In this document: positions 21,228 through 39,895 of the stretch, piece after piece
Numbering within the stretch: the first letter of the stretch is position 1
Layout of the letters: the number at the start of each line of letters is the position of its first letter
Assembly (NCBI GenBank): GCA_043803385.1
Contig: JAZDKA010000049.1
Location: forward strand, 1 to 50,255
DNA: 50,255 bases
Reading direction: 5' to 3'
DNA from: Patescibacteria group bacterium
Lineage (GTDB): Bacteria > Patescibacteriota > Minisyncoccia > Moranbacterales > JAKLHP01
Notes under the pieces: generated by a model
The model's database searches: none
Seen by the model: only the letters and a program-made list of their open reading frames with translations
What the model was told of the DNA's origin: nothing
Position numbers and translations under genes: made by a program

Positions 21228-23678
21228 ATGAAAGAAGAGAAAAAAGAAAATAACAAAAATATCCATTCTCGCCAGATAACCGATGAAGTCCAGCAGTCAT
21301 ACTTGGATTACGCCATGAGCGTAATTGTTTCTCGCGCCCTTCCGGATGTTCGCGATGGAATGAAGCCGGTCCACCGAAGAATTTTGTATTCCATGTGGAA
21401 CACCGGACTTCGAGCTAGCGCCAAATTCAGAAAATCCGCCACTGTTGTCGGAGAAGTGCTGGGAAAATACCATCCGCACGGAGACAGCGCCGTCTACGAA
21501 TCAATGGTCCGAATGGCACAGGATTTTTCTTTGAGATATCCGCTTGTCTGGGGCCAGGGAAATTTCGGATCAATGGACGGCGACAGCGCCGCGGCTTATC
21601 GTTATACTGAAGCCAAGCTCAAGCAAATCGCTGAAGAAATGCTTTTTGACATCGAAAAGGAAACGGTTGATTTTGTGCCTAATTTCGATGGAACTCATCA
21701 AGAACCGGTAGTTCTTCCCGCCAAACTCCCTCAACTTCTTCTTAACGGAACTATGGGAATTGCGGTGGGAATGGCAACTAACATTCCTCCACATAATCTA
21801 AACGAGCTCGTTGACGCTATCGCCTATTTGATTGATAATCCCGAAGCTACCATTGACGACCTGCTGAATTTCGTTAAAGGCCCTGATTTTCCGACTGGAG
21901 GAATAATCTATAACGCCAGAGATATTAAGGAAGCTTATTCTCTTGGAAAAGGAAAAATTACTACTCGCGGAAAAGCTGATATCGTTGAAACTAAAAGCGG
22001 AAGTTTTCAAATTGTTATTTCTGAAATAACTTATGCTACCAACAAGGCTGCTATGATTACGAAAATTGCTGATTTAGTTAAAGAAGGAAAACTTCAGGGA
22101 ATCAAAGACCTTCGCGATGAATCGGACAAGGATGGAGTGCGGGTCGTGATTGAACTTAAAAAAGACGCTTATCCGCAAAAAATTCTTAACAGCCTTTATT
22201 CCAATACTGATCTTCAAAAAAATTTCAATGTAAACATGCTGGCGCTGGTTGATGGGATTGAACCAAGGATCCTAAATCTCAAATCAATGCTCGAATATTT
22301 TATCGTTCACAGGCAGAAAGTAATAACCAGGCGCACCGAATATGAACTTAAAAAATCCAAAGAAAGAGCTCATGTTCTTGAAGGGCTCAAAAAAGCTCTC
22401 GACCATATTGATGCCGTGATTGAAACCATCAAAAAATCAGCTACAAAAGAAGTCGCCCATGATAATTTGATGAAGAAATTCAAGCTCTCTGACATCCAGG
22501 CTACCGCCATTTTGGAAATGAGATTGCAAACTTTGGCTGGGCTCGAAAGAAAGAAACTAGAAGATGAGCTCAAAGAAAAATTAGCTCTTATTGCTGAACT
22601 TGAAAATATTCTCAAGAGCCCAAAGAAAATTTTGGGAGTAGTAAAAAAAGAAATTCTGGAAATCAAAGAAAAATACGGAGACGAAAGAAAAACCAGAGTA
22701 ATCAAAACCGGCATCGGAGAATTTAAACAGGAAGACTTAATTCCCAACGAAGAAGCAATCATTACCCTCACCCAGGACGGATATATAAAAAGAATGGATC
22801 CTAATTCATACAAGGTTCAAAAAAGAGGTGGAAGAGGAGTGATTGGCGCTACTACCAAAGAAGGAGATTCAATTGAACAAGTGACCAGTGTGATGACTCA
22901 CGATAATCTGATGTTTTTCACTAACACCGGAAAAATTTTTCAGACCAAATCTTATGAAATTCCGGTTTCTCAAAGAACCGCCAAAGGACAAGCGATTGTT
23001 AATTTTCTCCAGCTTTCACAGGATGAAAAAATAACCGAAATGATTGCCTTCAACAAAGAAGACAATTATAAATTTTTCTTTATGACCACCGAGAATGGAA
23101 CGGTAAAGAAAGTAAAAATAGAAGATTTTGAAAACGTTAGAAGATCCGGGCTTATTGCTATAAATCTAGACAAGGGAGATACGCTTGGCTGGGTGAAACC
23201 GACTACTGGAACTGATGAAATTATTGTCACTACTTCACGGGGACAAGCCATTCATTTCAAGGAAACAGATGTACGCGCTATGGGAAGGAATGCCGCCGGA
23301 GTTCGAGGAATCAAACTCAAAAAAGATGACCGAGTTGTCGGGACAGATTCAGTTCTTAAAAACCAAAAAGGAAACCAGCTTCTCATTATTTCTGAAAATG
23401 GATTTGGAAAAAGAACGGATCTTAAATTCTACAAGATCCAAAAGCGCGGAGGAAGCGGAATAAAAACTTCCAGTGTTACTGCCAGAACTGGAAAACTGGT
23501 CGCCGCTAAAATGGTTAATATTGATGATATCGAAGTAGATATGCTCATTACTTCAGAACAAGGACAGATTATTAGAATTCCGCTCAAAAGCGTTTCAGTT
23601 CTGGGCCGAGCTACTCAAGGAGTTCGAATTATGAAACCAACTTCCGGAGACAAAGCTTCTGCTATGGCAGTACTCTAG
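21228..23678 (+). CDS. gyrA: DNA gyrase subunit A
   Basis: [24 protein letters not shown], catalytic Tyr context [10 protein letters not shown], and a C-terminal beta-pinwheel repeat region. Confidence 0.95.
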
Positions 23679-26291: not shown

Positions 26292-27845
26292 TTAGGCTTT
26301 ATCCTGTGGATAAGCATTAGTTTTATTACTTATCCACACTTTGCTCCCAATAATAAGCCCTAGAATAAGCCAAAATATTATTTGTCCTTGCTGAATATCC
26401 CAAAAATAATGATCAAAAAGCATTATAAATAAAAAACCGAAAAACAAGCTTTTTAATGTCAAATGAAGTTTATCTTCTGGGAATTTCCTGTACGGAAAAT
26501 TTTTCGCTACTTCCCAAATAAACCAAACAAATAATATAAGTCCAATTATTCCTAATTCGTTTAAAATAAGCAGAAACACGTTATGAACTGGCTGAAACTG
26601 CCAATTCTGAATTCCGGAAACATTAGCTAATTGATAAACATATTGTCCTATTCCGACTCCTATGACCGGATTTTCCAAAAATGTTCCACGTGAAACATTT
26701 AGATAAAACATCCTATCCTCAATGCTTTTCCCTATTATCGAGTACCAATTTGGCCTTATTATAAAAATTAGCAGAAAAATTATACTCACTATCAAGCCAA
26801 AGTACTTAAGTTTTCTAGCCACGAACTTCAAAAATGTTCCGCGCCTGCCCCGTAGAATGTTCCACGTGGAACATTTGTACTGGGGTGGAACATTTTTATA
26901 CCACAAATACAAAACTGCGATAATTAACCCAATCCAGGCAGATTTAGAGAAAGTTAAAACTAGGGTTAAAAGCTGAATTCCTAAAACTGAATAATACATA
27001 CTATTGTTCCACGCTTGCCCCGTCAATTGTTCCACGCTTGCCCCGTCAATTGTTCCACGTGGAACAATTTGACTGGGATGGAACACCTTAAAATACAAAA
27101 CTGTTAAGATTATAGATAAAACTAAAAATCCGCCGAGAATATTAGGATGCGGAAATAAGCCGTAAGATCTAATATATTTCTCTCCATTAAGCACTATTTT
27201 GGCTACTCCTGAAATATCCGATGAAATTATGCTTTCTTTAAGCCAAATAAGGCCAATTGACTTTTGAACAATAAATTGCCAAATTCCAATGAAGGATTGA
27301 GCTATCCCGATAGATATAATTATTAGAAATAAATTCTTTTTTATTGTGTTCCACCCCAGTAGCAAAGAAAATGTTCCACGTGGAACATTTTCTTGCAACG
27401 GGGCAGGCGTGGAACAATTGGTTGCTATGAGACAAGCGTGGAACAATCTAAAGATAACCCAGAGATAAAGTAAATAAAATTCCAGTAATTTTATAGATCT
27501 AAAAATAGCTACTTGCCAGTTATCTGACCAAAAGGCGCTAATAAAGGAAAAAATGACTAACAGCAGGGGAATTATAACAACTTTTTGCTTTAAATAAGCT
27601 ACAAAGTAAGGATTACTCCTTGACTTTGATAGTATTTTATTGTATAATATAGATAACCCAGTGATTATTAGCACAAACAAAAGAAAAATATCAGATAAAT
27701 ATATATAAATTCCGGTATATTCATTAAACTGTTCCCTTATTGGGTAAAAAAACAAAACTTTCCTGATTGAAAGCGTAAAAGTCAAAAGAAAACCGTAAAA
27801 AAACCAGATTTCTAATTTATTTAAAAAATTTATTATCCTTTCCAT
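26292..27845 (-). CDS. O-antigen ligase (Wzy_C)-like polytopic membrane protein carrying in-frame palindromic inserts
   Basis: About 12 hydrophobic spans. GLFPHPNILGG, GVGIGQYVY and QPVHNVFLLILNELGIIG resemble the O-antigen ligase domain. Four VPRGT/CSTWN-type peptide islands come from parS palindromes. Confidence 0.65.
   Translation of the reverse strand: MERIINFLNKLEIWFFYGFLLTFTLSIRKVLFFYPIREQFNEYTGIYIYLSDIFLLFVLIITGLSILYNKILSKSRSNPYFVAYLKQKVVIIPLLLVIFSFISAFWSDNWQVAIFRSIKLLEFYLLYLWVIFRLFHACLIATNCSTPAPLQENVPRGTFSLLLGWNTIKKNLFLIIISIGIAQSFIGIWQFIVQKSIGLIWLKESIISSDISGVAKIVLNGEKYIRSYGLFPHPNILGGFLVLSIILTVLYFKVFHPSQIVPRGTIDGASVEQLTGQAWNNSMYYSVLGIQLLTLVLTFSKSAWIGLIIAVLYLWYKNVPPQYKCSTWNILRGRRGTFLKFVARKLKYFGLIVSIIFLLIFIIRPNWYSIIGKSIEDRMFYLNVSRGTFLENPVIGVGIGQYVYQLANVSGIQNWQFQPVHNVFLLILNELGIIGLILFVWFIWEVAKNFPYRKFPEDKLHLTLKSLFFGFLFIMLFDHYFWDIQQGQIIFWLILGLIIGSKVWISNKTNAYPQDKA
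26305..26338. promoter_or_regulatory. Two perfect DnaA boxes in inverted orientation
   Basis: TGTGGATAA at 26305-26313 and TTATCCACA at 26330-26338. Confidence 0.6.
26682..26697. promoter_or_regulatory. parS: parS site S1
   Basis: TGTTCCACGTGAAACA is identical to the Bacillus-type parS consensus TGTTNCACGTGAAACA. Confidence 0.75.
26858..26873. promoter_or_regulatory. parS: parS site S2
   Basis: TGTTCCACGTGGAACA, a perfect 16-bp palindrome one step from the parS consensus. Confidence 0.7.
27051..27066. promoter_or_regulatory. parS: parS site S3
   Basis: TGTTCCACGTGGAACA. Confidence 0.7.
27372..27387. promoter_or_regulatory. parS: parS site S4
   Basis: TGTTCCACGTGGAACA. Confidence 0.7.
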
Positions 27846-29133: not shown

Positions 29134-29134
29134 A

Positions 29135-29175
29135 AGAGGTATGTTTAGCAATGCTAACATGCCTCTATTTTTTTT
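29135..29175 (+). terminator. Rho-independent terminator
   Basis: Long stem AGAGGTATGTTTAGCA / TGCTAACATGCCTCT followed by a T-run. Confidence 0.75.
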
Positions 29176-29203
29176 ATTGACCAATCACCACAAGTTGATA
29201 TGA

Positions 29204-30772
29204 TTAGTTATGTAGTTTTAAAATAATTTGGGCCGTTAGCTCATTTGGTAGAGCGCATCCATGGCATGGATGAGGCGACCGGTTCGATCCCGGTACGGTC
29301 CACCAGACAGGAAATTGCAAGCAAGAGGTGGTCGCCTCGCTTCGCTCGGCGACCAAATCGTAAGGAATTTTGGGCGAAAAAATCAGTTGGCGATTCTGTA
29401 AAATGCAGTTCGAGCCGATATTTTTAAGAAATGTTGTCATTTCTGATTTGTTTTCCGTTTCAAGTAGTTTTGCGGCTTGATTAAGCGATAAAACGAACTC
29501 ACGTGCCGGTTCGAGCCACGACAGACCTTTCTGTTCAAAATCTCGGATTTTTTCCTGCAGACCGACCTTTTCCTTAACCAACCTTTCTTTGCGAGAGGCA
29601 TATTCCTCGGCAGTAATTATTTCTTCCAAATAAACATCAAGTAGTTTTTCGAGTTTTTTCTCAATTTCCAAAAATGTCGTCTTGAGGTTTTGAACAGTAA
29701 TTTTGGTTTGCTCTTTTGCTTGCGTTTCCTCCTTGTTTAACTCGGCCAAAACTTTTTCTGTGTCGTGGTTCGGCAAAGAAATTTTTTGAAGAAAGGTTTT
29801 GATTTGTTGATATAATTCTTCTTCCCGCAAAAAGTGTTTTTCTTGGCATGGTCCTTTCTTTTTCGTACAGCGATAGTAAATATATTCTCTGCCGCTCGGC
29901 TTGATTTTCTTTTCAGCGGTTATTGCCGCTGAGCAAGGGCATTTCATTAAACCAAGAAAAGCAAAATTATGTTTTTTCACTTTTTGCGGCTTGCCTTTTT
30001 CTCGCATAATTTCCTGCACCTTATCAAAAAGTTTCTTTGAAATTAACGGCTCGTGAGTGGCTTCGTGGATTTCGCCTTTGTACTTCATGAGACCAATGTA
30101 GAAAACATTTTGCAAAAGCGTATGGACTTTTCCAATTGAAATTTCATTGCCCAAATTGCTTTTGAGATCTATTCGTTTGCACCGCTCGGCTATTTCTCGA
30201 AGGTTGTAATTTCCGGTGGCATAAAGCTCAAAAATTTTTTTCAACTTCGGTGCTTTCTCGGTATCAACATCAATTCCTCTGGTTTTTGGATTGTTGAGGT
30301 AGCCGAGTGGTGCCTTGCTGGGCCAAACGCCGTTTCTAACTTTCTGCCTCATGCCGCGAGTGACATTTTCTCTTAAACTATCCACATAATATTTTGATTG
30401 GCCAAAAGCAATTTGGAGCATGAAAAGTCCTTGAGGTGTCGGTTCAAACCAAAATGTTGGAAACTTTAATGATTTAATCAAGCCGCGATCAATCATGTGA
30501 ATTATTTTTCCGCCGTCCACAGAATTGCGCGCCAATCTATCCGGATTCCAACTCAAAATTCCTTCTGCTTTTCCATTTTCTATCAATGACAACATTTCTG
30601 CGAATTTAATTCGCCCAGGTTCTTTGGCGGTTTTTGCCTCTTGAAAAGAGGCGACAATTTCAAGTTTTTCTTTGGCGGCAAATTCTTTTAATTCAAAAAT
30701 CTGGGCCTCAATACTCAAGACCTGTCGGTCATCTTCTTCGGTAGATTTTCTTGCATAAAGTATATATTTCAT
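29204..30772 (-). CDS. Large serine recombinase (resolvase domain + recombinase domain + zinc ribbon + coiled coil); true 3' end uncertain
   Basis: N-terminal YARKSTEEDDRQVLSIEAQ (catalytic Ser context), PDRLARN, and zinc-ribbon-like CPCS...YYRCTKKKGPC. The ORF runs on antisense through the att arm and the whole tRNA-Ala gene. Confidence 0.85.
   Translation of the reverse strand: MKYILYARKSTEEDDRQVLSIEAQIFELKEFAAKEKLEIVASFQEAKTAKEPGRIKFAEMLSLIENGKAEGILSWNPDRLARNSVDGGKIIHMIDRGLIKSLKFPTFWFEPTPQGLFMLQIAFGQSKYYVDSLRENVTRGMRQKVRNGVWPSKAPLGYLNNPKTRGIDVDTEKAPKLKKIFELYATGNYNLREIAERCKRIDLKSNLGNEISIGKVHTLLQNVFYIGLMKYKGEIHEATHEPLISKKLFDKVQEIMREKGKPQKVKKHNFAFLGLMKCPCSAAITAEKKIKPSGREYIYYRCTKKKGPCQEKHFLREEELYQQIKTFLQKISLPNHDTEKVLAELNKEETQAKEQTKITVQNLKTTFLEIEKKLEKLLDVYLEEIITAEEYASRKERLVKEKVGLQEKIRDFEQKGLSWLEPAREFVLSLNQAAKLLETENKSEMTTFLKNIGSNCILQNRQLIFSPKIPYDLVAERSEATTSCLQFPVWWTVPGSNRSPHPCHGCALPNELTAQIILKLHN
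29230..29305 (+). tRNA. tRNA-Ala(GGC), CCA encoded
   Basis: GGGCCGT...CATCC-ATGGCAT-GGATG...GGTTCGATCCCGG...ACGGTCC-ACCA, with the G3:U70 alanine identity pair. Confidence 0.9.
29306..29396 (+). repeat. IR1 copy a (att arm 1; encodes the recombinase C-terminal tail on the minus strand)
   Basis: Inverted match to 30820-30910. Perfect blocks: ACAGGAAATTGCAAG, GCTCGGCGACCAAAT and TTTGGGCGAAAAAATCA. Confidence 0.75.
29399..29426 (+). repeat. IR2 copy a
   Basis: 28 of 28 nt are the reverse complement of 31023-31050. Confidence 0.85.
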
Positions 30773-30819
30773 ATTTTTATTGGATTAAGGATTAAAAAAT
30801 TTTCTTTCCCCAAAATGCA

Positions 30820-30910
30820 TAATCGCAAAATGATTTTTTCGCCCAAATTTCTTTTTTATTTGGTCGCCGAGCTACGCGTGGCGAATCTTGAAAACTTGCA
30901 ATTTCCTGTT
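30820..30910 (-). repeat. IR1 copy b
   Basis: See 29306-29396. Confidence 0.75.
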
Positions 30911-30917
30911 TGGTGGG

Positions 30918-31001
30918 CTATTCTTAAAATAGTTCGGACGCATTTCGCCGCCACAGGCGGCGAGGGTCTGGCCAAAAATTACGAACCGAAATCCTGAACT
31001 T
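30918..31001 (-). repeat. IR3 copy a (att arm 3)
   Basis: 84-nt near-perfect reverse complement of 32489-32572. Differences lie mainly in the 3-nt loop of the CGCCGCC-nnn-GGCGGCG hairpin, plus one other position. Confidence 0.85.
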
Positions 31002-31022
31002 AAAAACTGCCAAAGAACCTGA

Positions 31023-31050
31023 TAAAAATATCGGCTCGAACTGCATTTTA
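31023..31050 (-). repeat. IR2 copy b
   Basis: See 29399-29426. Confidence 0.85.
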
Positions 31051-31157
31051 ATTTTGGGAAAAGAAAATTTTTCATTTGAAGTATTAAGAAATGAGTGTTA
31101 AAATTTTTAAAAGGTCGAACAAAATTAAAAGTAATAATTACCAAAAAAGAAATTGAT

Positions 31158-32357
31158 ATGAAAAAATTTACTTTAGGCGCAATAACCCTCTTTGCCATCT
31201 TTGGCCTAACGCTATTTGTGGTTCAAGCCATGGCTCAAACCAATGGCGTTGGTGGACGTAAAATTGTCGTTTTTCAGACTGGCCTGAACGATGCCGCTAA
31301 AGACGAAATCATTGTCCGCGCTGGCGGCGCCAAATTGAAGAATCTTGATCTTATTGGCGCTAAAGCGGTGTGGGTGCCAGATCGTTCGGCGGCAGCGAAA
31401 TTGGCTGCTTATCCCGGTGTAGTGCGAGTGGACGATGATGTAATAGTGGAAGCGCTTGTTAAAGAAGGATTTGTGGCAGTAAAGGGAGTATCTTTTCAAC
31501 CAGTTGAGGTGCTTCCCTGGGGAGTTGATCGCGTAGACGCAGAACTTGTCTGGCCCTCGGGCAACACTGCTGACCCAATCAAAGTTGGCATTATTGACAC
31601 GGGCATTTCCAACACACACCCTGACCTTTTGGCTAACGTGAAAGGCGGTGTCAATACCATCAATCCACGTAAAAATTGGAATGATGATAATGGTCATGGT
31701 TCGCATGTAGCCGGAATTGTCGGAGCGATTGATAATACGATTGGAGCGATTGGTGTTGGACCAGCCATTGATCTCTTCGCCATTAAGGTATTGGACAGGA
31801 ACGGTTCAGGATACCTCTCAGACGTGATTGAAGGAATCCAGTGGGCAGTTGCACACAATATGCAGGTGGTCAATATGAGCTTGGGTACGGCTTCAGATAT
31901 CCAGTCATTTCACGACGCTGTGATTGTTGCCAAAAACGCCGGTGTTGTGGTGGTGGCAGCCGCAGGAAACAGTGGCGGCTCGGTTATCTTTCCGGCGAAA
32001 TATCAGGAGACAATTGCGGTTTCGGCCACTGACCAGAACAATGTAATTGCTTCTTGGTCCAGCCGCGGCCCCGAAGTGGACTTAGCTGCTCCTGGCGTGA
32101 GCATTTATTCAACCTACAAAGGCACGGGTTACGCCACACTTTCTGGGACTTCAATGGCCGCTCCACATGTTGCCGGCTCCGCTGCTCTTGTCTTGAATAC
32201 GTCAGTCGGCGGGTATGATGTTAATCTCAATGGGAAGTGGGATTCGGATGAAGTGCAGAAGAAACTTCAAGATCGCGCCGTTGACTTGGGAAATACAGGA
32301 TTTGATAATCTCTATGGTTGGGGGTTGGTAAATGCATATAGTGCCGTGCAGCAGTAA
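31158..32357 (+). CDS. Secreted subtilisin-family (S8) serine protease with an N-terminal I9-like propeptide
   Basis: Signal peptide MKKFTLGAITLFAIFGLTLFVVQAMA. Catalytic triad contexts VGIIDTGI, GHGSHVAGIVGA and SGTSMAAPHVAGSAAL. GC-rich relative to the host genes. Confidence 0.9.
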   Translation: MKKFTLGAITLFAIFGLTLFVVQAMAQTNGVGGRKIVVFQTGLNDAAKDEIIVRAGGAKLKNLDLIGAKAVWVPDRSAAAKLAAYPGVVRVDDDVIVEALVKEGFVAVKGVSFQPVEVLPWGVDRVDAELVWPSGNTADPIKVGIIDTGISNTHPDLLANVKGGVNTINPRKNWNDDNGHGSHVAGIVGAIDNTIGAIGVGPAIDLFAIKVLDRNGSGYLSDVIEGIQWAVAHNMQVVNMSLGTASDIQSFHDAVIVAKNAGVVVVAAAGNSGGSVIFPAKYQETIAVSATDQNNVIASWSSRGPEVDLAAPGVSIYSTYKGTGYATLSGTSMAAPHVAGSAALVLNTSVGGYDVNLNGKWDSDEVQKKLQDRAVDLGNTGFDNLYGWGLVNAYSAVQQ

Positions 32358-32488
32358 CTTCACCGTGCAAGGGCTTCGCGATGATTCAAGCAAAACTCGC
32401 CATTCGGCGGGTTTTGTGTATTCGACACCAGTATTTATGCTAAACTAAATATAAAATAGAGCCGCCAAAGAAAAACTTGAAATTGTCA

Positions 32489-32572
32489 AAGTTCAGGATT
32501 TCGGTTCGGAATTTTTGGCCAGACCCTCGCCGCCGCAGGCGGCGAAATGCGTCCGAACTATTTTAAGAATAG
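32489..32572 (+). repeat. IR3 copy b
   Basis: See 30918-31001. Confidence 0.85.
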
Positions 32573-32656
32573 TCCACAATAAATATGACTTAAATCAAAA
32601 GTCGTATTTTTTGTTAAATTTTTTCAATAGTGATATTGTATAAATAGTATTAATTT

Positions 32657-32728
32657 GCTCTCGTAGTTCAACGGATAGAACAAGGGACTCCTAAGCCCTA
32701 GATCCAGGTTCGATTCTTGGCGAGAGCA
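32657..32728 (+). tRNA. tRNA-Arg(CCU)
   Basis: GCTCTCG-TA-GTTCAACGGATAGAAC...AGGGA-CTCCTAA-GCCCT...CCAGGTTCGATTCTTGG-CGAGAGC-A. Confidence 0.85.
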
Positions 32729-32739
32729 CTAGAATAAAT

Positions 32740-34212
32740 ATGCTTAACAAAATACCAAAACCAGTCATAGATATTTTGAAAAAACTTGAAGAGAATAATT
32801 TTGAAGCGTACATTGTCGGTGGCTGTGTGCGTGATTTGCTAATGGTCGATCCGCCAGCTGGCGGACCAAAAGATTGGGATATCGCTACCAATGCTAAGCC
32901 GGAAGAAATAATGAAAATTTTTCTTGACAGTTTCTATGAAAATAAATTTTTTACTGTCGGAGTGAAAACGGAAGATGAAAAATTTCCAGTAGTGGAGGTC
33001 ACGACATTTCGCATTGAACAAAAATATTCAGATAAGCGCCATCCCGATGAAGTTAAATTTGCGAAAACTTTAGCAGAAGATTTAGGAAGGCGTGATTTTA
33101 CCATTAATGCGTTAGCTATCGGAGTCAAAAGTCAAAAGTCAAAAGTCAAAAACGGATTTGAGATAATTGATTCATTTGACGGGCAAAAGGATTTGAAAAA
33201 TAAAGTTATCCGAGCAGTTGGAAATCCTAACGATAGATTTAATGAAGACGCGCTTCGAATGATGAGGGCAGTGCGATTTGCTTCGGAATTAAACTTTACA
33301 ATTGAAAAGAAAACTCTGGAAGCAATAAAAAAGAACGCCAAAAATCTGGAATATATCGCCCGAGAAAGAATTAAGGATGAATTGGACAAAATTATTTTAT
33401 CAGACGAGCCCTCGGAGGGAATAGATATGCTTCATGAAATAGGACTTTTGAATTATATAATTCCGGAGCTGGAAAAAGGATACGGAGTTGAGCAAAACAG
33501 ACATCATATTTACACAATTTATAAGCATAGCCTAATGTCTCTCAAGTTTGCCAAGCCAAAAAAATTAGACTTGAGGCTAGCCGTGCTTCTTCATGATATT
33601 GCTAAGCCCGAAACCAAAAGAGGAGAGGGGTTATATTCCACTTTCTATAATCACGACCACGCAGGCGCAAGGGTATCGGAAAATATTTTAAAACGTCTCC
33701 GATATCCAAATAACATAATTCAAAAAGTAAGGCTCCTGGTTGACAACCACATGTTTTATTATAATCCGGAGGAAGTGGGGGAAAGTTCAGTAAGAAAATT
33801 AATAAGAAAAGTTGGACTGGAAAATATGAAAGATTTGATCGAGCTTCGAATGGCGGAAAGATTAGGCTCCGGAGTTCCTAAGGCCAAGCCATATAAGCTT
33901 CGCCACCTTGAATATATTATTGAAAAAGTTTCCCATGATGCCATTTCTGTAAAGATGCTCAAAATAAACGGCAACGATTTAATGAAAGTTCTAAATATCA
34001 AACCAGGACCAAAGATCGGAGCAATTTTGGATGTGCTTCTGGCGGAAGCAATTGAAGATCCTGCAAGGAATACCAAAGAATATTTAGAAAGGCGCGCATT
34101 GGAATTAGATAAAGAAAATTTAGAAAAACTTCGCAAAATGGCCAAAGAAAAAATTGAAGAAAAGAAAGAAGAAGAAGATAAGGAAATCAAAAAGAAACAT
34201 TGGGTTAAATGA
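32740..34212 (+). CDS. cca: CCA-adding tRNA nucleotidyltransferase with an HD domain
   Basis: VGGCVRD...DWDIAT, RDFTINA and LLHDIAKP. Contains a 17-nt GC palindrome and a 7-nt x4 tandem repeat in frame. Confidence 0.9.
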   Translation: MLNKIPKPVIDILKKLEENNFEAYIVGGCVRDLLMVDPPAGGPKDWDIATNAKPEEIMKIFLDSFYENKFFTVGVKTEDEKFPVVEVTTFRIEQKYSDKRHPDEVKFAKTLAEDLGRRDFTINALAIGVKSQKSKVKNGFEIIDSFDGQKDLKNKVIRAVGNPNDRFNEDALRMMRAVRFASELNFTIEKKTLEAIKKNAKNLEYIARERIKDELDKIILSDEPSEGIDMLHEIGLLNYIIPELEKGYGVEQNRHHIYTIYKHSLMSLKFAKPKKLDLRLAVLLHDIAKPETKRGEGLYSTFYNHDHAGARVSENILKRLRYPNNIIQKVRLLVDNHMFYYNPEEVGESSVRKLIRKVGLENMKDLIELRMAERLGSGVPKAKPYKLRHLEYIIEKVSHDAISVKMLKINGNDLMKVLNIKPGPKIGAILDVLLAEAIEDPARNTKEYLERRALELDKENLEKLRKMAKEKIEEKKEEEDKEIKKKHWVK

Positions 34213-34290: not shown

Positions 34291-34364
34291 GGACGACTAG
34301 CTCAGCCGGTTAGAGCGCTACGTTCACATCGTAGAGGTCACAAGTTCGAATCTTGTGTCGTCCA
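34291..34364 (+). tRNA. tRNA-Val(CAC)
   Basis: GGACGAC-TA-GCTCAGCCGGTTAGAGC...CTACG-TTCACAT-CGTAG...CACAAGTTCGAATCTTGTG-TCGTCC-A. Confidence 0.9.
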
Positions 34365-34365
34365 C

Positions 34366-34620
34366 ATGAAATATTTTATTTATATTGCTTATAACAAAAC
34401 TTTTGATAAATTTTATATTGGCCAAACAAATAACCTAGCAAGAAGAGAATTTGAGCATAATAACAAATTATCAAAATATACAGCAAAGTATAGCGGGGAT
34501 TGGAAAATATTATATACTGAAAATTATAATTCTAGAGCAGAAGCAATGAGAAGAGAAAAATTTCTCAAAAATCAGAAAAATAAAGACTTTTATAGAAAAT
34601 TATGCAGCTCAGTTGGTTAG
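34366..34620 (+). CDS. GIY-YIG nuclease-domain protein (UPF0213/YhbQ-like size)
   Basis: YIAYNKTFDKFYIGQTNNLARREFEHN. Starts 1 nt after tRNA-Val and ends inside a tRNA-derived D-arm. Confidence 0.75.
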   Translation: MKYFIYIAYNKTFDKFYIGQTNNLARREFEHNNKLSKYTAKYSGDWKILYTENYNSRAEAMRREKFLKNQKNKDFYRKLCSSVG

Positions 34621-39800: not shown

Positions 39801-39875
39801 GCGGGTATCGTATAGTGGCTATTATATTACCTTGCCAAGGTAGAGATACGGGTTCGACTCCCGTTACCCGCTCCA
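39801..39875 (+). tRNA. tRNA-Gly(GCC), CCA encoded
   Basis: GCGGGTA...TTACC-TTGCCAA-GGTAG...CGGGTTCGACTCCCG-TTACCCGC-TCCA. Confidence 0.85.
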
Positions 39876-39895
39876 ATTGAAAACTTCATGAACCT

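Follow-up and report, generated by a model that had tools for sequence, protein, structure and literature searches.

A large serine recombinase element with an internal inverted attP-type junction in a patescibacterial tRNA-Ala gene

Introduction

What kind of element lies behind the tRNA-Ala(GGC) gene on contig JAZDKA010000049.1 of a Patescibacteria group bacterium (GenBank assembly GCA_043803385.1), and why does it hold, in inverted orientation, what looks like one more recombination site? Patescibacteria have tiny genomes, and the routes by which they gain genes are little known. In the 50,255-nucleotide (nt) stretch of DNA analyzed here (the window, on which all coordinates are based), a short core occurs three times with swapped arms around a recombinase gene and a protease gene. 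From this pattern, a sequence-only reading had proposed a large serine recombinase (LSR) element in tRNA-Ala with attL, attR and an internal attP-like junction, together with either a second inverted att-bearing copy or a flip-flop inversion in the manner of the yeast 2-micron plasmid. We report that positions 29304-32577 are an integrative element, inserted by an LSR in the 3' end of tRNA-Ala(GGC), and that two modules are joined at the internal junction (site B), a recombinase module bounded by inverted copies of one arm (arm 1) and a cargo module bounded by inverted copies of the other (arm E), with repeats of ~100 nt. This two-module layout is the norm of the family in Patescibacteria.

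Results

The tRNA-Ala Gene Carries an Insertion That a Syntenic Locus Lacks

A metagenome scan with the NMO protein encoded upstream of tRNA-Ala returned 80 loci, one of which, L109, keeps the synteny (NMO gene, tRNA-Ala(GGC), 80 nt and tRNA-Arg(CCT)) and has no element. Window positions 29134-29303 and 32578-32760 were collinear with L109, the junction reading ...GGTACGGTCCAC followed by A(A/T)T(A/G)AATATGACTTAA, and the window therefore carries 3274 extra bases (29304-32577, give or take the 4-nt core). The tRNA-Ala(GGC) gene (plus strand, 29230-29305; detected by ARAGORN and, at 57.5 bits, as an Rfam tRNA) has an orthologue without the element in L109, where it is directly followed by the counterpart of the right flank, or B' arm, with tRNA-Arg(CCT) (plus strand, 32578-32729, the tRNA at 32657-32729). 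The comparison with a relative lacking the recombinase thus speaks for an insertion, since L109 has the flank of site C, and not arm 1, after tRNA-Ala.

Three core-bearing strings were read directly in this region. Site A is tccacca at 29299-29305, which forms the 3' end of tRNA-Ala and is followed by gacaggaaattgcaag; site B, on the minus strand of 30895-30932, reads ctattttaagaatag-cccacca-aacaggaaattgcaag; and site C, at 32558-32589, reads ctattttaagaatag-tccacaa-taaatatgac. The positions of these strings and their swapped arms, as first described, were confirmed, and the pattern is far above chance. Because CCAC is common to A, B and C, the crossover is placed inside this motif (29300-29303 at A, 32574-32577 at C and, at B, 30913-30916), which comprises the last two acceptor bases, the discriminator and the first C, and directly past which, on the plus strand of attL, the L109 alignment breaks.

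The arms were present at all three sites, as had been claimed, and an inverted-repeat search revealed them to be far longer than claimed. Arm 3 (arm E) relates 30913-31001 to 32489-32577 (89 nt, 94% complementary), and arm 1 relates 29300-29321 to 30895-30916 in its core-proximal part (22 nt, 95%) and 29332-29398 to 30818-30884 in its outer part (67 nt, 84%). The 15-nt start of arm 1 and the 22-nt end of arm 3 have no further occurrences in the 50-kb window (expected matches, 0.20 and 0.00, respectively), which favors att sites over generic repeats; the 7-nt core alone is explicable by chance, and the arms are not. An Rfam scan returned only two tRNAs and one sub-threshold chance match over arm 3.

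The assignment of A as attL, of C as attR and of B as an intact inverted attP-type junction is supported by the same logic in 29 relatives at other tRNAs, where A joins the tRNA to arm 1, B joins E to arm 1 in inverted orientation, and C joins E to the flank. At attL, arm 1 (P' arm) covers 29304-29398 on the plus strand. attR (plus strand, 32489-32577) consists of arm 3/E (P arm), which carries the T-loop mimic GTCCGAAC, and the core CCAC at 32574-32577. Site B (minus strand, 30818-31001) consists of an arm 1 copy (30818-30912), the core (30913-30916, GTGG on the plus strand) and an E copy (30917-31001).

The left (B) arm of the target is the tRNA T-arm plus the 3' strand of the acceptor, and the tRNA gene is intact after the insertion. 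In the empty site of L109 the tRNA ends in ...TCCA-CAT, the native ending being TCCA and then CAT or CAA; the window tRNA-Ala has an encoded CCA, whose CA was traced by the L109 alignment and by tRNA comparison to arm 1, as expected if the element arm supplies the end of the gene. The observation from which this idea had started was also correct, 13 of the 15 tRNA genes in the window having no encoded CCA and only tRNA-Ala and tRNA-Gly(GCC) having one; in 11 of the 13 the next bases are C and then A or T, and in the other two, tRNA-Gly TCC and CCC, an A run comes next. The empty-site junction predicted for the window would read tRNA-Ala...TCCAC followed by AATAAATATG, and an exact search of metagenome contigs for a 23-nt pattern of the predicted empty site gave no match.

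The Recombinase Gene Runs across attP

The minus-strand open reading frame (ORF) at 29204-30772 (522 amino acids) is, judging from its catalytic, Recombinase and zinc-ribbon domains, a large serine recombinase. Residues 4-150 match PF00239 (Resolvase, E=1.2e-20), with a YARKST motif containing Ser10 read from the translation; PF07508 (Recombinase, E=7.4e-16) and PF13408 (Zn_ribbon_recom, 2e-06, 28.5 bits vs a cut-off of 25.3) were also detected; residues 169-306 match the A118 integrase 4KIS (E=6.3e-09); and residues ~330-440, inspected for the coiled-coil motif by which the zinc-ribbon domain controls directionality, appear, by eye only, rich in heptad-like E, K and L. Together with the empty site in syntenic L109, these domains bear out the proposal of an LSR-driven element in tRNA-Ala. 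An exact look-up of the window recombinase found no record.

The conserved recombinase ends at the core (amino acid 491, nt 29300), its ...LQFPVWW end being encoded by core-proximal arm 1, and the last 31 codons of the ORF are read-through of the antisense strand of the tRNA; many homologue matches end at amino acid 490. Arm 1 at attL is the antisense of the last ~32 conserved codons (...LVAERSEA..LQFPVWW), a peptide that is kept in relatives. Arm 1 is therefore the 3' end of the recombinase gene itself, which extends over attP. Nearly every element has an open frame through arm 1, core and E; this frame encodes (S/C)ILK(I/V)VRTHFAA, which is the P-arm motif, and ends variably.

In the common form the recombinase gene faces tRNA transcription. 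A crude consensus scan found no promoter-like site upstream of the recombinase, two upstream of tRNA-Ala, and one at 31076-31104, past the F-Cc-G leader described below. The called genes of the element are the recombinase and the protease only; a 60-amino acid ORF across B had no Pfam match, although directionality factors are diverse and one may escape recognition by sequence.

The E Arm Copies the tRNA T-loop

The E arm contains G(T/C)TCG(A/G)AC, a copy of the tRNA T-loop GTTCGA, and in 36 of 39 elements its distance from the core exceeds that of the tRNA motif by exactly 5 nt; in the window E arm, GTTCGAAC is set 5 nt further out than the GTTCGA of the tRNA. This offset matches the attP/attB half-site difference of LSRs: in the half-site model reportedly put forward by Rutherford and Van Duyne in 2013, attP and attB are said to differ in the placement of the zinc-ribbon domain. 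The chromosomal flank arm of attB is unconstrained among relatives. When the E and arm 1 halves were compared, the best dyad match averaged 10.8/27, vs 12.4/27 for random sequences. Since arm 1 encodes the C-terminus of the recombinase, its conservation may stem from coding.

A Conserved Mosaic of Recombinase Gene Pieces Surrounds the Cargo Gene

Four inverted pairs that the sequence-only reading had not described were found: Cc (29399-29426/31023-31050, 28 nt, 100%), H (30653-30679/32461-32487, 27 nt, 100%), F (30616-30635/31002-31021, 20 nt, 95%) and G (30795-30816/31051-31072, 22 nt, 95%), each of which pairs a short segment from the recombinase gene with a border of the cargo gene. In addition, D2 (29427-29441) and D1 (30585-30599) form an inverted pair of 15 nt (100%). 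Cc and D2 lie together in the 3' region of the recombinase gene (29399-29441) and are conserved in relatives; D1, F, the palindrome h (30636-30652) and H lie in its 5' coding region (30585-30679), with the same pairs in more than 45 relatives; and G, likewise conserved, lies in the leader directly upstream of the recombinase start and has its copy upstream of the cargo gene. The copies of F, Cc and G form a leader of their own between B and the cargo (plus strand, 31002-31072), and the whole series arm 1-core-E-F-Cc-G also precedes the cargo genes of L161. The H copy (plus strand, 32461-32487), which repeats recombinase codons ~32-40 in sense orientation, stands between the cargo and the distal arm, as it does in relatives. 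Cc holds a second, E-arm-like GTTCGAG motif and may be an accessory binding site.

The palindrome h, GCCTCTTGAAAAGAGGC, is 17 nt long and lies within the coding region between H and F; with the following AAAAACCGCCA it resembles a T-arm plus an acceptor-CCA mimic. In L031 (3440-3460) the position of h separates two cargo cassettes, and single-cargo elements have E arms there instead.

More than 45 loci have, upstream of the recombinase and in inverted orientation, G, Cc, F, E, core and arm 1, with H beside the distal E. Repeat copies within one element mostly show 0-2 mismatches per ~100 nt (usually 98-100% identity), compared with a difference of 11% or more between even the most similar recombinase genes of the set. 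Where F varies, as in L012 and L041, its two copies vary together. RNA pairing was rejected as the reason for the inverted repeats, because the mismatches have no G:U-compatible bias (transversions make up 36 of 86 in arm 1), and the absence of any sign of RNA pairing indicates that the constraint acts on DNA identity. The window element is an outlier in that arm 1 of its B resembles the arm of another lineage, with only the 22 core-adjacent nt kept.

Two models for the origin of the F/Cc/G/H mosaic were considered and not adopted. Among single inversions and deletions, an inversion between the G copies would turn the window form into a plain recombinase element with a cassette in tandem, which was not found in any locus, and a single-strand dumbbell model predicts strand-specific products and needs a replication function that the element lacks.

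The Family Occupies Many tRNA Genes in Patescibacteria

At least 347 relatives were found in a collection of species-representative genomes, and the best 80 loci, at 50-88% identity, were fetched. All 80 come from metagenome-assembled genomes, most of them labelled Patescibacteria. A protein collection contained at least 7773 homologues at E<=1e-30, none with a name more specific than "recombinase family protein" or "Pin-like invertase". Most of the 80 loci have a tRNA gene that converges on the recombinase gene and overlaps its 3' end, about 15 tRNA identities being represented (among them Ala, Leu, Arg, Phe, Ile, Val, Asn, Lys, Glu, Met, Gln, Ser and Trp). In the 29 relatives with the A/B/C logic, the core common to the three sites is 4-7 nt long and tracks the end of the element's own tRNA (CCACCA for Ala and Val; GCACCA for Leu, Arg, Ile and Phe; GAGCCA for Asn; CAGCCA for Gln; CCGCCA for Ser). 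One 3520-bp contig (L007) spans exactly core to core, and contigs often break exactly at cores, for which reason many predicted proteins stop one residue past the core. Two copies with different cargo (L053 and L054) lie in one genome, one of them at a non-tRNA site that has the same core.

Further serine recombinase elements, of other sub-lineages, were seen beside or near the first in L017 (5707-6796, ending in the start of a second recombinase), L005 (11202-12949, a second element at tRNA-Ala(GGC)) and L022 (10063-13457), which indicates that multi-element islands exist. A few kb from the element, L164-L167 (near 5344-5772 in L164), which belong to one Patescibacteria population, have LAGLIDADG homing-endonuclease ORFs that are probably encoded in rRNA introns and unrelated to the element. 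The H motif was absent from the viral contigs of IMG/VR, which gives no link to phages.

The Cargo Is Rapidly Exchanged

In the window, the cargo gene (plus strand, 31158-32357) encodes a subtilisin-like S8 protease (Pfam Peptidase_S8, 1.1e-57), putatively secreted in view of an N-terminal hydrophobic leader that was judged by eye only; an exact look-up of the protein found no record. Its G+C content is ~0.50, vs 0.36-0.40 in the recombinase gene and the flanks, which suggests that the origin of the cargo differs from that of its carrier. Between the E copies, most elements have one gene (110-360 amino acids), and L076 has several, of up to 470 amino acids. The cargo genes encode methyltransferases, a short-chain dehydrogenase, the S8 protease, NAD(P)HX dehydratase, DNA methylase, Mrr, CfrBI, HEAT repeats, radical SAM and other proteins, and none of them was common to two elements among 34, even at 82-89% nucleotide identity of the recombinase genes. 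The cargo is thus a rapidly exchanged single gene or short cassette array. Such arrays are seen in L031, with two cassettes and the spacer H-h-F-Cc-G, and in L061, with two cassettes and one joint at a core-like CTGCCA/CCGCCA inside F. Extra H copies lie further upstream in L022 and L027, with an extra Cc also in L022, and in L161 the recombinase gene lies between 262-nt inverted repeats with cargo on both sides, each preceded by arm 1, core, E, F, Cc and G.

Rearranged Forms Are Rare

When orientations were counted across assembled contigs, the recombinase was oriented as in the window in at least 45 loci and reversed in three (L034, L077 and L162). No flipped cargo module was found among the 80 genome loci, and the sole cargo inversion is that between L162 and L163. 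These two loci come from different samples and encode an identical 504-amino acid recombinase (99.8-99.9% nucleotide identity), and their methyltransferase cargo lies in opposite orientation with different joints: L163 has the gene inside the usual inverted-repeat cargo module, and the order in L162 is tRNA-Ile, core, the unit arm 1-G-methyltransferase-H-E, core, the unit arm 1-G-recombinase...arm 1, an inverted core and E2. In the related genomes of L034 and L015, the recombinase modules lie in opposite orientations, both at tRNA-Ala(CGC). About 11 of the top 120 homologues, of which some 100 are C-terminally complete, run into a P-type arm and not into a tRNA. The recombinases P0092, P0025 and P0016, found on 4-19 contigs each, have a single arrangement in every sample, which suggests that rearrangement is uncommon within populations.

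Other Features of the Window

Within 39801-39895, tRNA-Gly(GCC), with its encoded CCA, precedes ATTGAAAACTTC, a sequence similar to the arm 1 start of Ser/Trp-type relatives (CCA followed by ATTGGGAAATG). From this resemblance, the site may be the scar of an old attL; tRNA-Gly(CCC) lies only 20 nt away. An ORF with a GIY-YIG nuclease domain (34366-34620, 84 amino acids, Pfam E=4.7e-14) starts at the base directly after tRNA-Val(CAC) (34291-34365) and is possibly another tRNA-adjacent, mobile gene. A perfect 16-nt palindrome, TGTTCCACGTGGAACA, occurs at 26682-27387 and also at 21387 and 41722 (0.01 matches expected). Three exact copies and one with 1 mismatch lie inside an O-antigen-ligase-like ORF (26292-27845, minus strand, Wzy_C), where they appear in the protein as repeated VPRGTF/CSTWNI, as if a small palindromic element had inserted in frame.

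Discussion

Taken together, these results make it quite probable that the locus is the product of an LSR insertion, that two modules meet at the inverted attP-type junction B, and that B has been retained for the roles outlined here. The evidence is good for the insertion, for the att assignments and for the LSR mechanism; the roles of B are inferred from the layout and would be the following. Integration would use the attP that overlaps the 3' end of the recombinase gene, leaving B as a second predicted recombinase-binding site between the divergent recombinase and cargo genes, where, as our best guess, it might act as an operator. B might also be the partner repeat for an inversion of the recombinase module, brought about by the recombinase itself or by RecA on the 100-nt repeats, a length that would suit RecA-dependent flipping and gene conversion. 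Such an inversion would position the recombinase gene downstream of the tRNA promoter and restore its native, E-encoded end (ON state), and the common orientation would be the silent, stable state. Swapping of modules or cassettes at the same joints would account for the turnover of the cargo.

Several points weigh against this account. In canonical LSRs, recombination is confined to attP with attB unless a directionality factor takes part; none is apparent in the element, and an inversion between attL and attP is not among the known LSR reactions. The attP-type sites have no dyad symmetry, unlike the LSR sites that have been studied, so that recognition may differ from the textbook model. The B of the window is partly decayed, with an arm 1 that mismatches that of attL at 21 of 100 positions, and the model offers no explanation for the conserved F, Cc, G and H copies. 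As to the rearranged forms, L077 is not a clean flip, since its arm 1 copies are ~60% alike (by eye) and its attP core CCGCCA mismatches the GTGCCA end of the adjacent tRNA-Trp, and the rare alternative orientations could partly be choices made by assemblers across a 100-nt inverted repeat. The promoter scan, moreover, was a crude consensus match, and excision and inversion in the population of the window are predicted from sequence only.

The 2-micron-like element of the sequence-only reading would be a circle with two ~200-bp inverted attP repeats whose halves flip freely and of which either attP integrates. A circle formed by attL and attR would necessarily bear two inverted attP-type repeats, the identity of the repeats is maintained, and some rearranged forms exist; however, a replication gene or a candidate origin does not fit in 3.3 kb, and free flipping with either attP in use predicts four integrated forms in similar numbers, whereas at least 45 loci show one, the cargo module being flipped in no locus and the recombinase module in very few. 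Recombination of attP with attP is, moreover, not a known activity of LSRs. Lacking a replicon and strongly biased in orientation, with rearranged forms only rare, the element thus does not sustain the flip-flop proposal, which we regard as unlikely. The other half of that proposal was a second inverted att-bearing copy of the element; a related reading makes B and the short recombinase gene fragments the functionless wreck of a head-to-head copy that was later deleted. The cargo is indeed surrounded by recombinase gene pieces (arm 1, F, Cc, G and H), the L031 spacer H-h-F-Cc-G is the natural gene order minus the body, and arm 1 in the B of the window has diverged. Against this stand the same fragments, breakpoints, order and orientation in elements whose recombinases are only 50-70% identical, and the near-identity of copies within an element together with their co-variation between elements (L012 and L041), which is unlike random decay. 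B and its surroundings are thus a conserved ordered mosaic and not a decayed copy, and a dead second copy has very little probability on account of this conservation and co-variation.

Exchange of cassettes at the same joints is a strong second reading. In its full form, that of an integron-like platform, a serine recombinase would insert circles of the type arm 1-G-gene-H-E at junctions of tRNA-type arms, and the B joints would be a by-product of capture. The methyltransferase unit of L162, which extends from arm 1 to E in direct orientation and has tRNA-Ile on one side and the recombinase module on the other, is consistent with such insertions, as are the tandem cassettes, with the L061 joint at CTGCCA/CCGCCA inside F, the total turnover of the cargo, and the unconstrained right-hand arm of the target, which means that attL could still act as a target. 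Nevertheless, neither free cassette circles nor orphan cassettes at tRNAs lacking a recombinase were found, cassettes in direct orientation are rare compared with the inverted-repeat form, and the origin of the inverted joint is left unexplained, so that we hold the platform to be possible but doubtful. An assembly artefact or a generic repeat, in the form of chimeric joins or REP-like hairpins, has a negligible probability: inverted repeats longer than the k-mer can confuse assemblers, and many relatives lie on contigs that break inside the element, but the same architecture was found in NODE (SPAdes-style), k141 (megahit-style), RIFCS and GW2011 contigs, names that point to different pipelines, and at different sites, the arms are unique in the window, and an empty site exists, which refutes this explanation.

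LSR insertion with retention of the inverted junction B is therefore the reading that we prefer. More speculatively, the family could be a gene-shuffling system, in which the LSR would read one arm, either the tRNA T-loop or its 5-nt-shifted mimic, so that tRNA-type joints would be live targets and mimic joints live donors. Modules and leader-bearing cassettes would then be inserted, inverted and exchanged, giving integron-like arrays at tRNA genes without a directionality factor. Such a system, which we put forward only tentatively, would be previously undescribed.

The element resembles the prophages and islands with serine integrases (phiC31, Bxb1, A118/LI and TP901-1, SCCmec with Ccr, and Tn4451 with TnpX) in its three-domain recombinase, its short common core and the 5-nt motif shift between attP and attB. 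It differs from them in targeting the 3' ends of many tRNA genes via the T-loop with att sites that have no dyad symmetry, in having a recombinase gene that crosses attP and an extra inverted attP that is retained, and in its content of one recombinase and one cargo with no candidate directionality factor. Hin, Gin and Cin likewise have the recombinase gene within a segment bounded by inverted repeats, but they are small serine invertases that need an enhancer and Fis and act on sites of ~26 bp, in contrast to ~491 conserved residues and ~100-nt repeats here. An attP inside the recombinase gene, with integration changing the end of the gene, is shared with SSV1-type integrases; the SSV1 enzyme, however, is a tyrosine recombinase and its gene is truly split. 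The excised circle would share with the yeast 2-micron plasmid (FLP/FRT) two unique halves and two inverted repeats that bear the target, although FLP is a tyrosine recombinase and the plasmid is an autonomous replicon that uses inversion for copy-number amplification, whereas no replicon and a biased orientation were found here. Integrons are alike in their unrelated single-gene cassettes, occasional tandem arrays and fast turnover beside a recombinase gene, and differ in the tyrosine recombinase IntI, the folded attC and mostly promoterless cassettes, as against an LSR, a common G leader and attP-type joints.

Tyrosine-integrase islands in tRNA genes (P4-like; Islander, PMC4383910) also insert at the 3' end and restore the end of the gene; their recombinase is of the other class, and here the repeat is a core of 4-7 nt and not a tRNA fragment of tens of nt, the window element adding the CA of CCA. 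The nearest concept is that of the tycheposons of Prochlorococcus, cargo elements at tRNA genes of streamlined genomes, 27 of 937 of which encode a large serine recombinase (bioRxiv 10.1101/2020.12.28.424599). Tycheposons mostly use tyrosine recombinases and often have replication genes, and two inverted-repeat modules or an internal attP are not described there (bioRxiv 10.1101/2020.12.28.424599). A full-text literature search found no description of these Patescibacteria elements. Integration by LSRs is itself known, and what appears to be new is an LSR element that combines targeting of the tRNA T-loop with a two-module build of inverted repeats, an attP in its interior and cargo of cassette type.

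LSRs with predictable, reprogrammable targets are wanted as genome-integration tools, and the family provides a natural LSR lineage aimed at a universal, highly conserved motif, the tRNA T-loop, with many natural core variants matched to different tRNAs and att sites without the usual symmetry. It also poses the question of what purpose the conserved internal inverted attP serves. For the Patescibacteria themselves, these elements offer a concrete route of gene gain, with thousands of copies, each carrying one variable gene, at tRNA genes.

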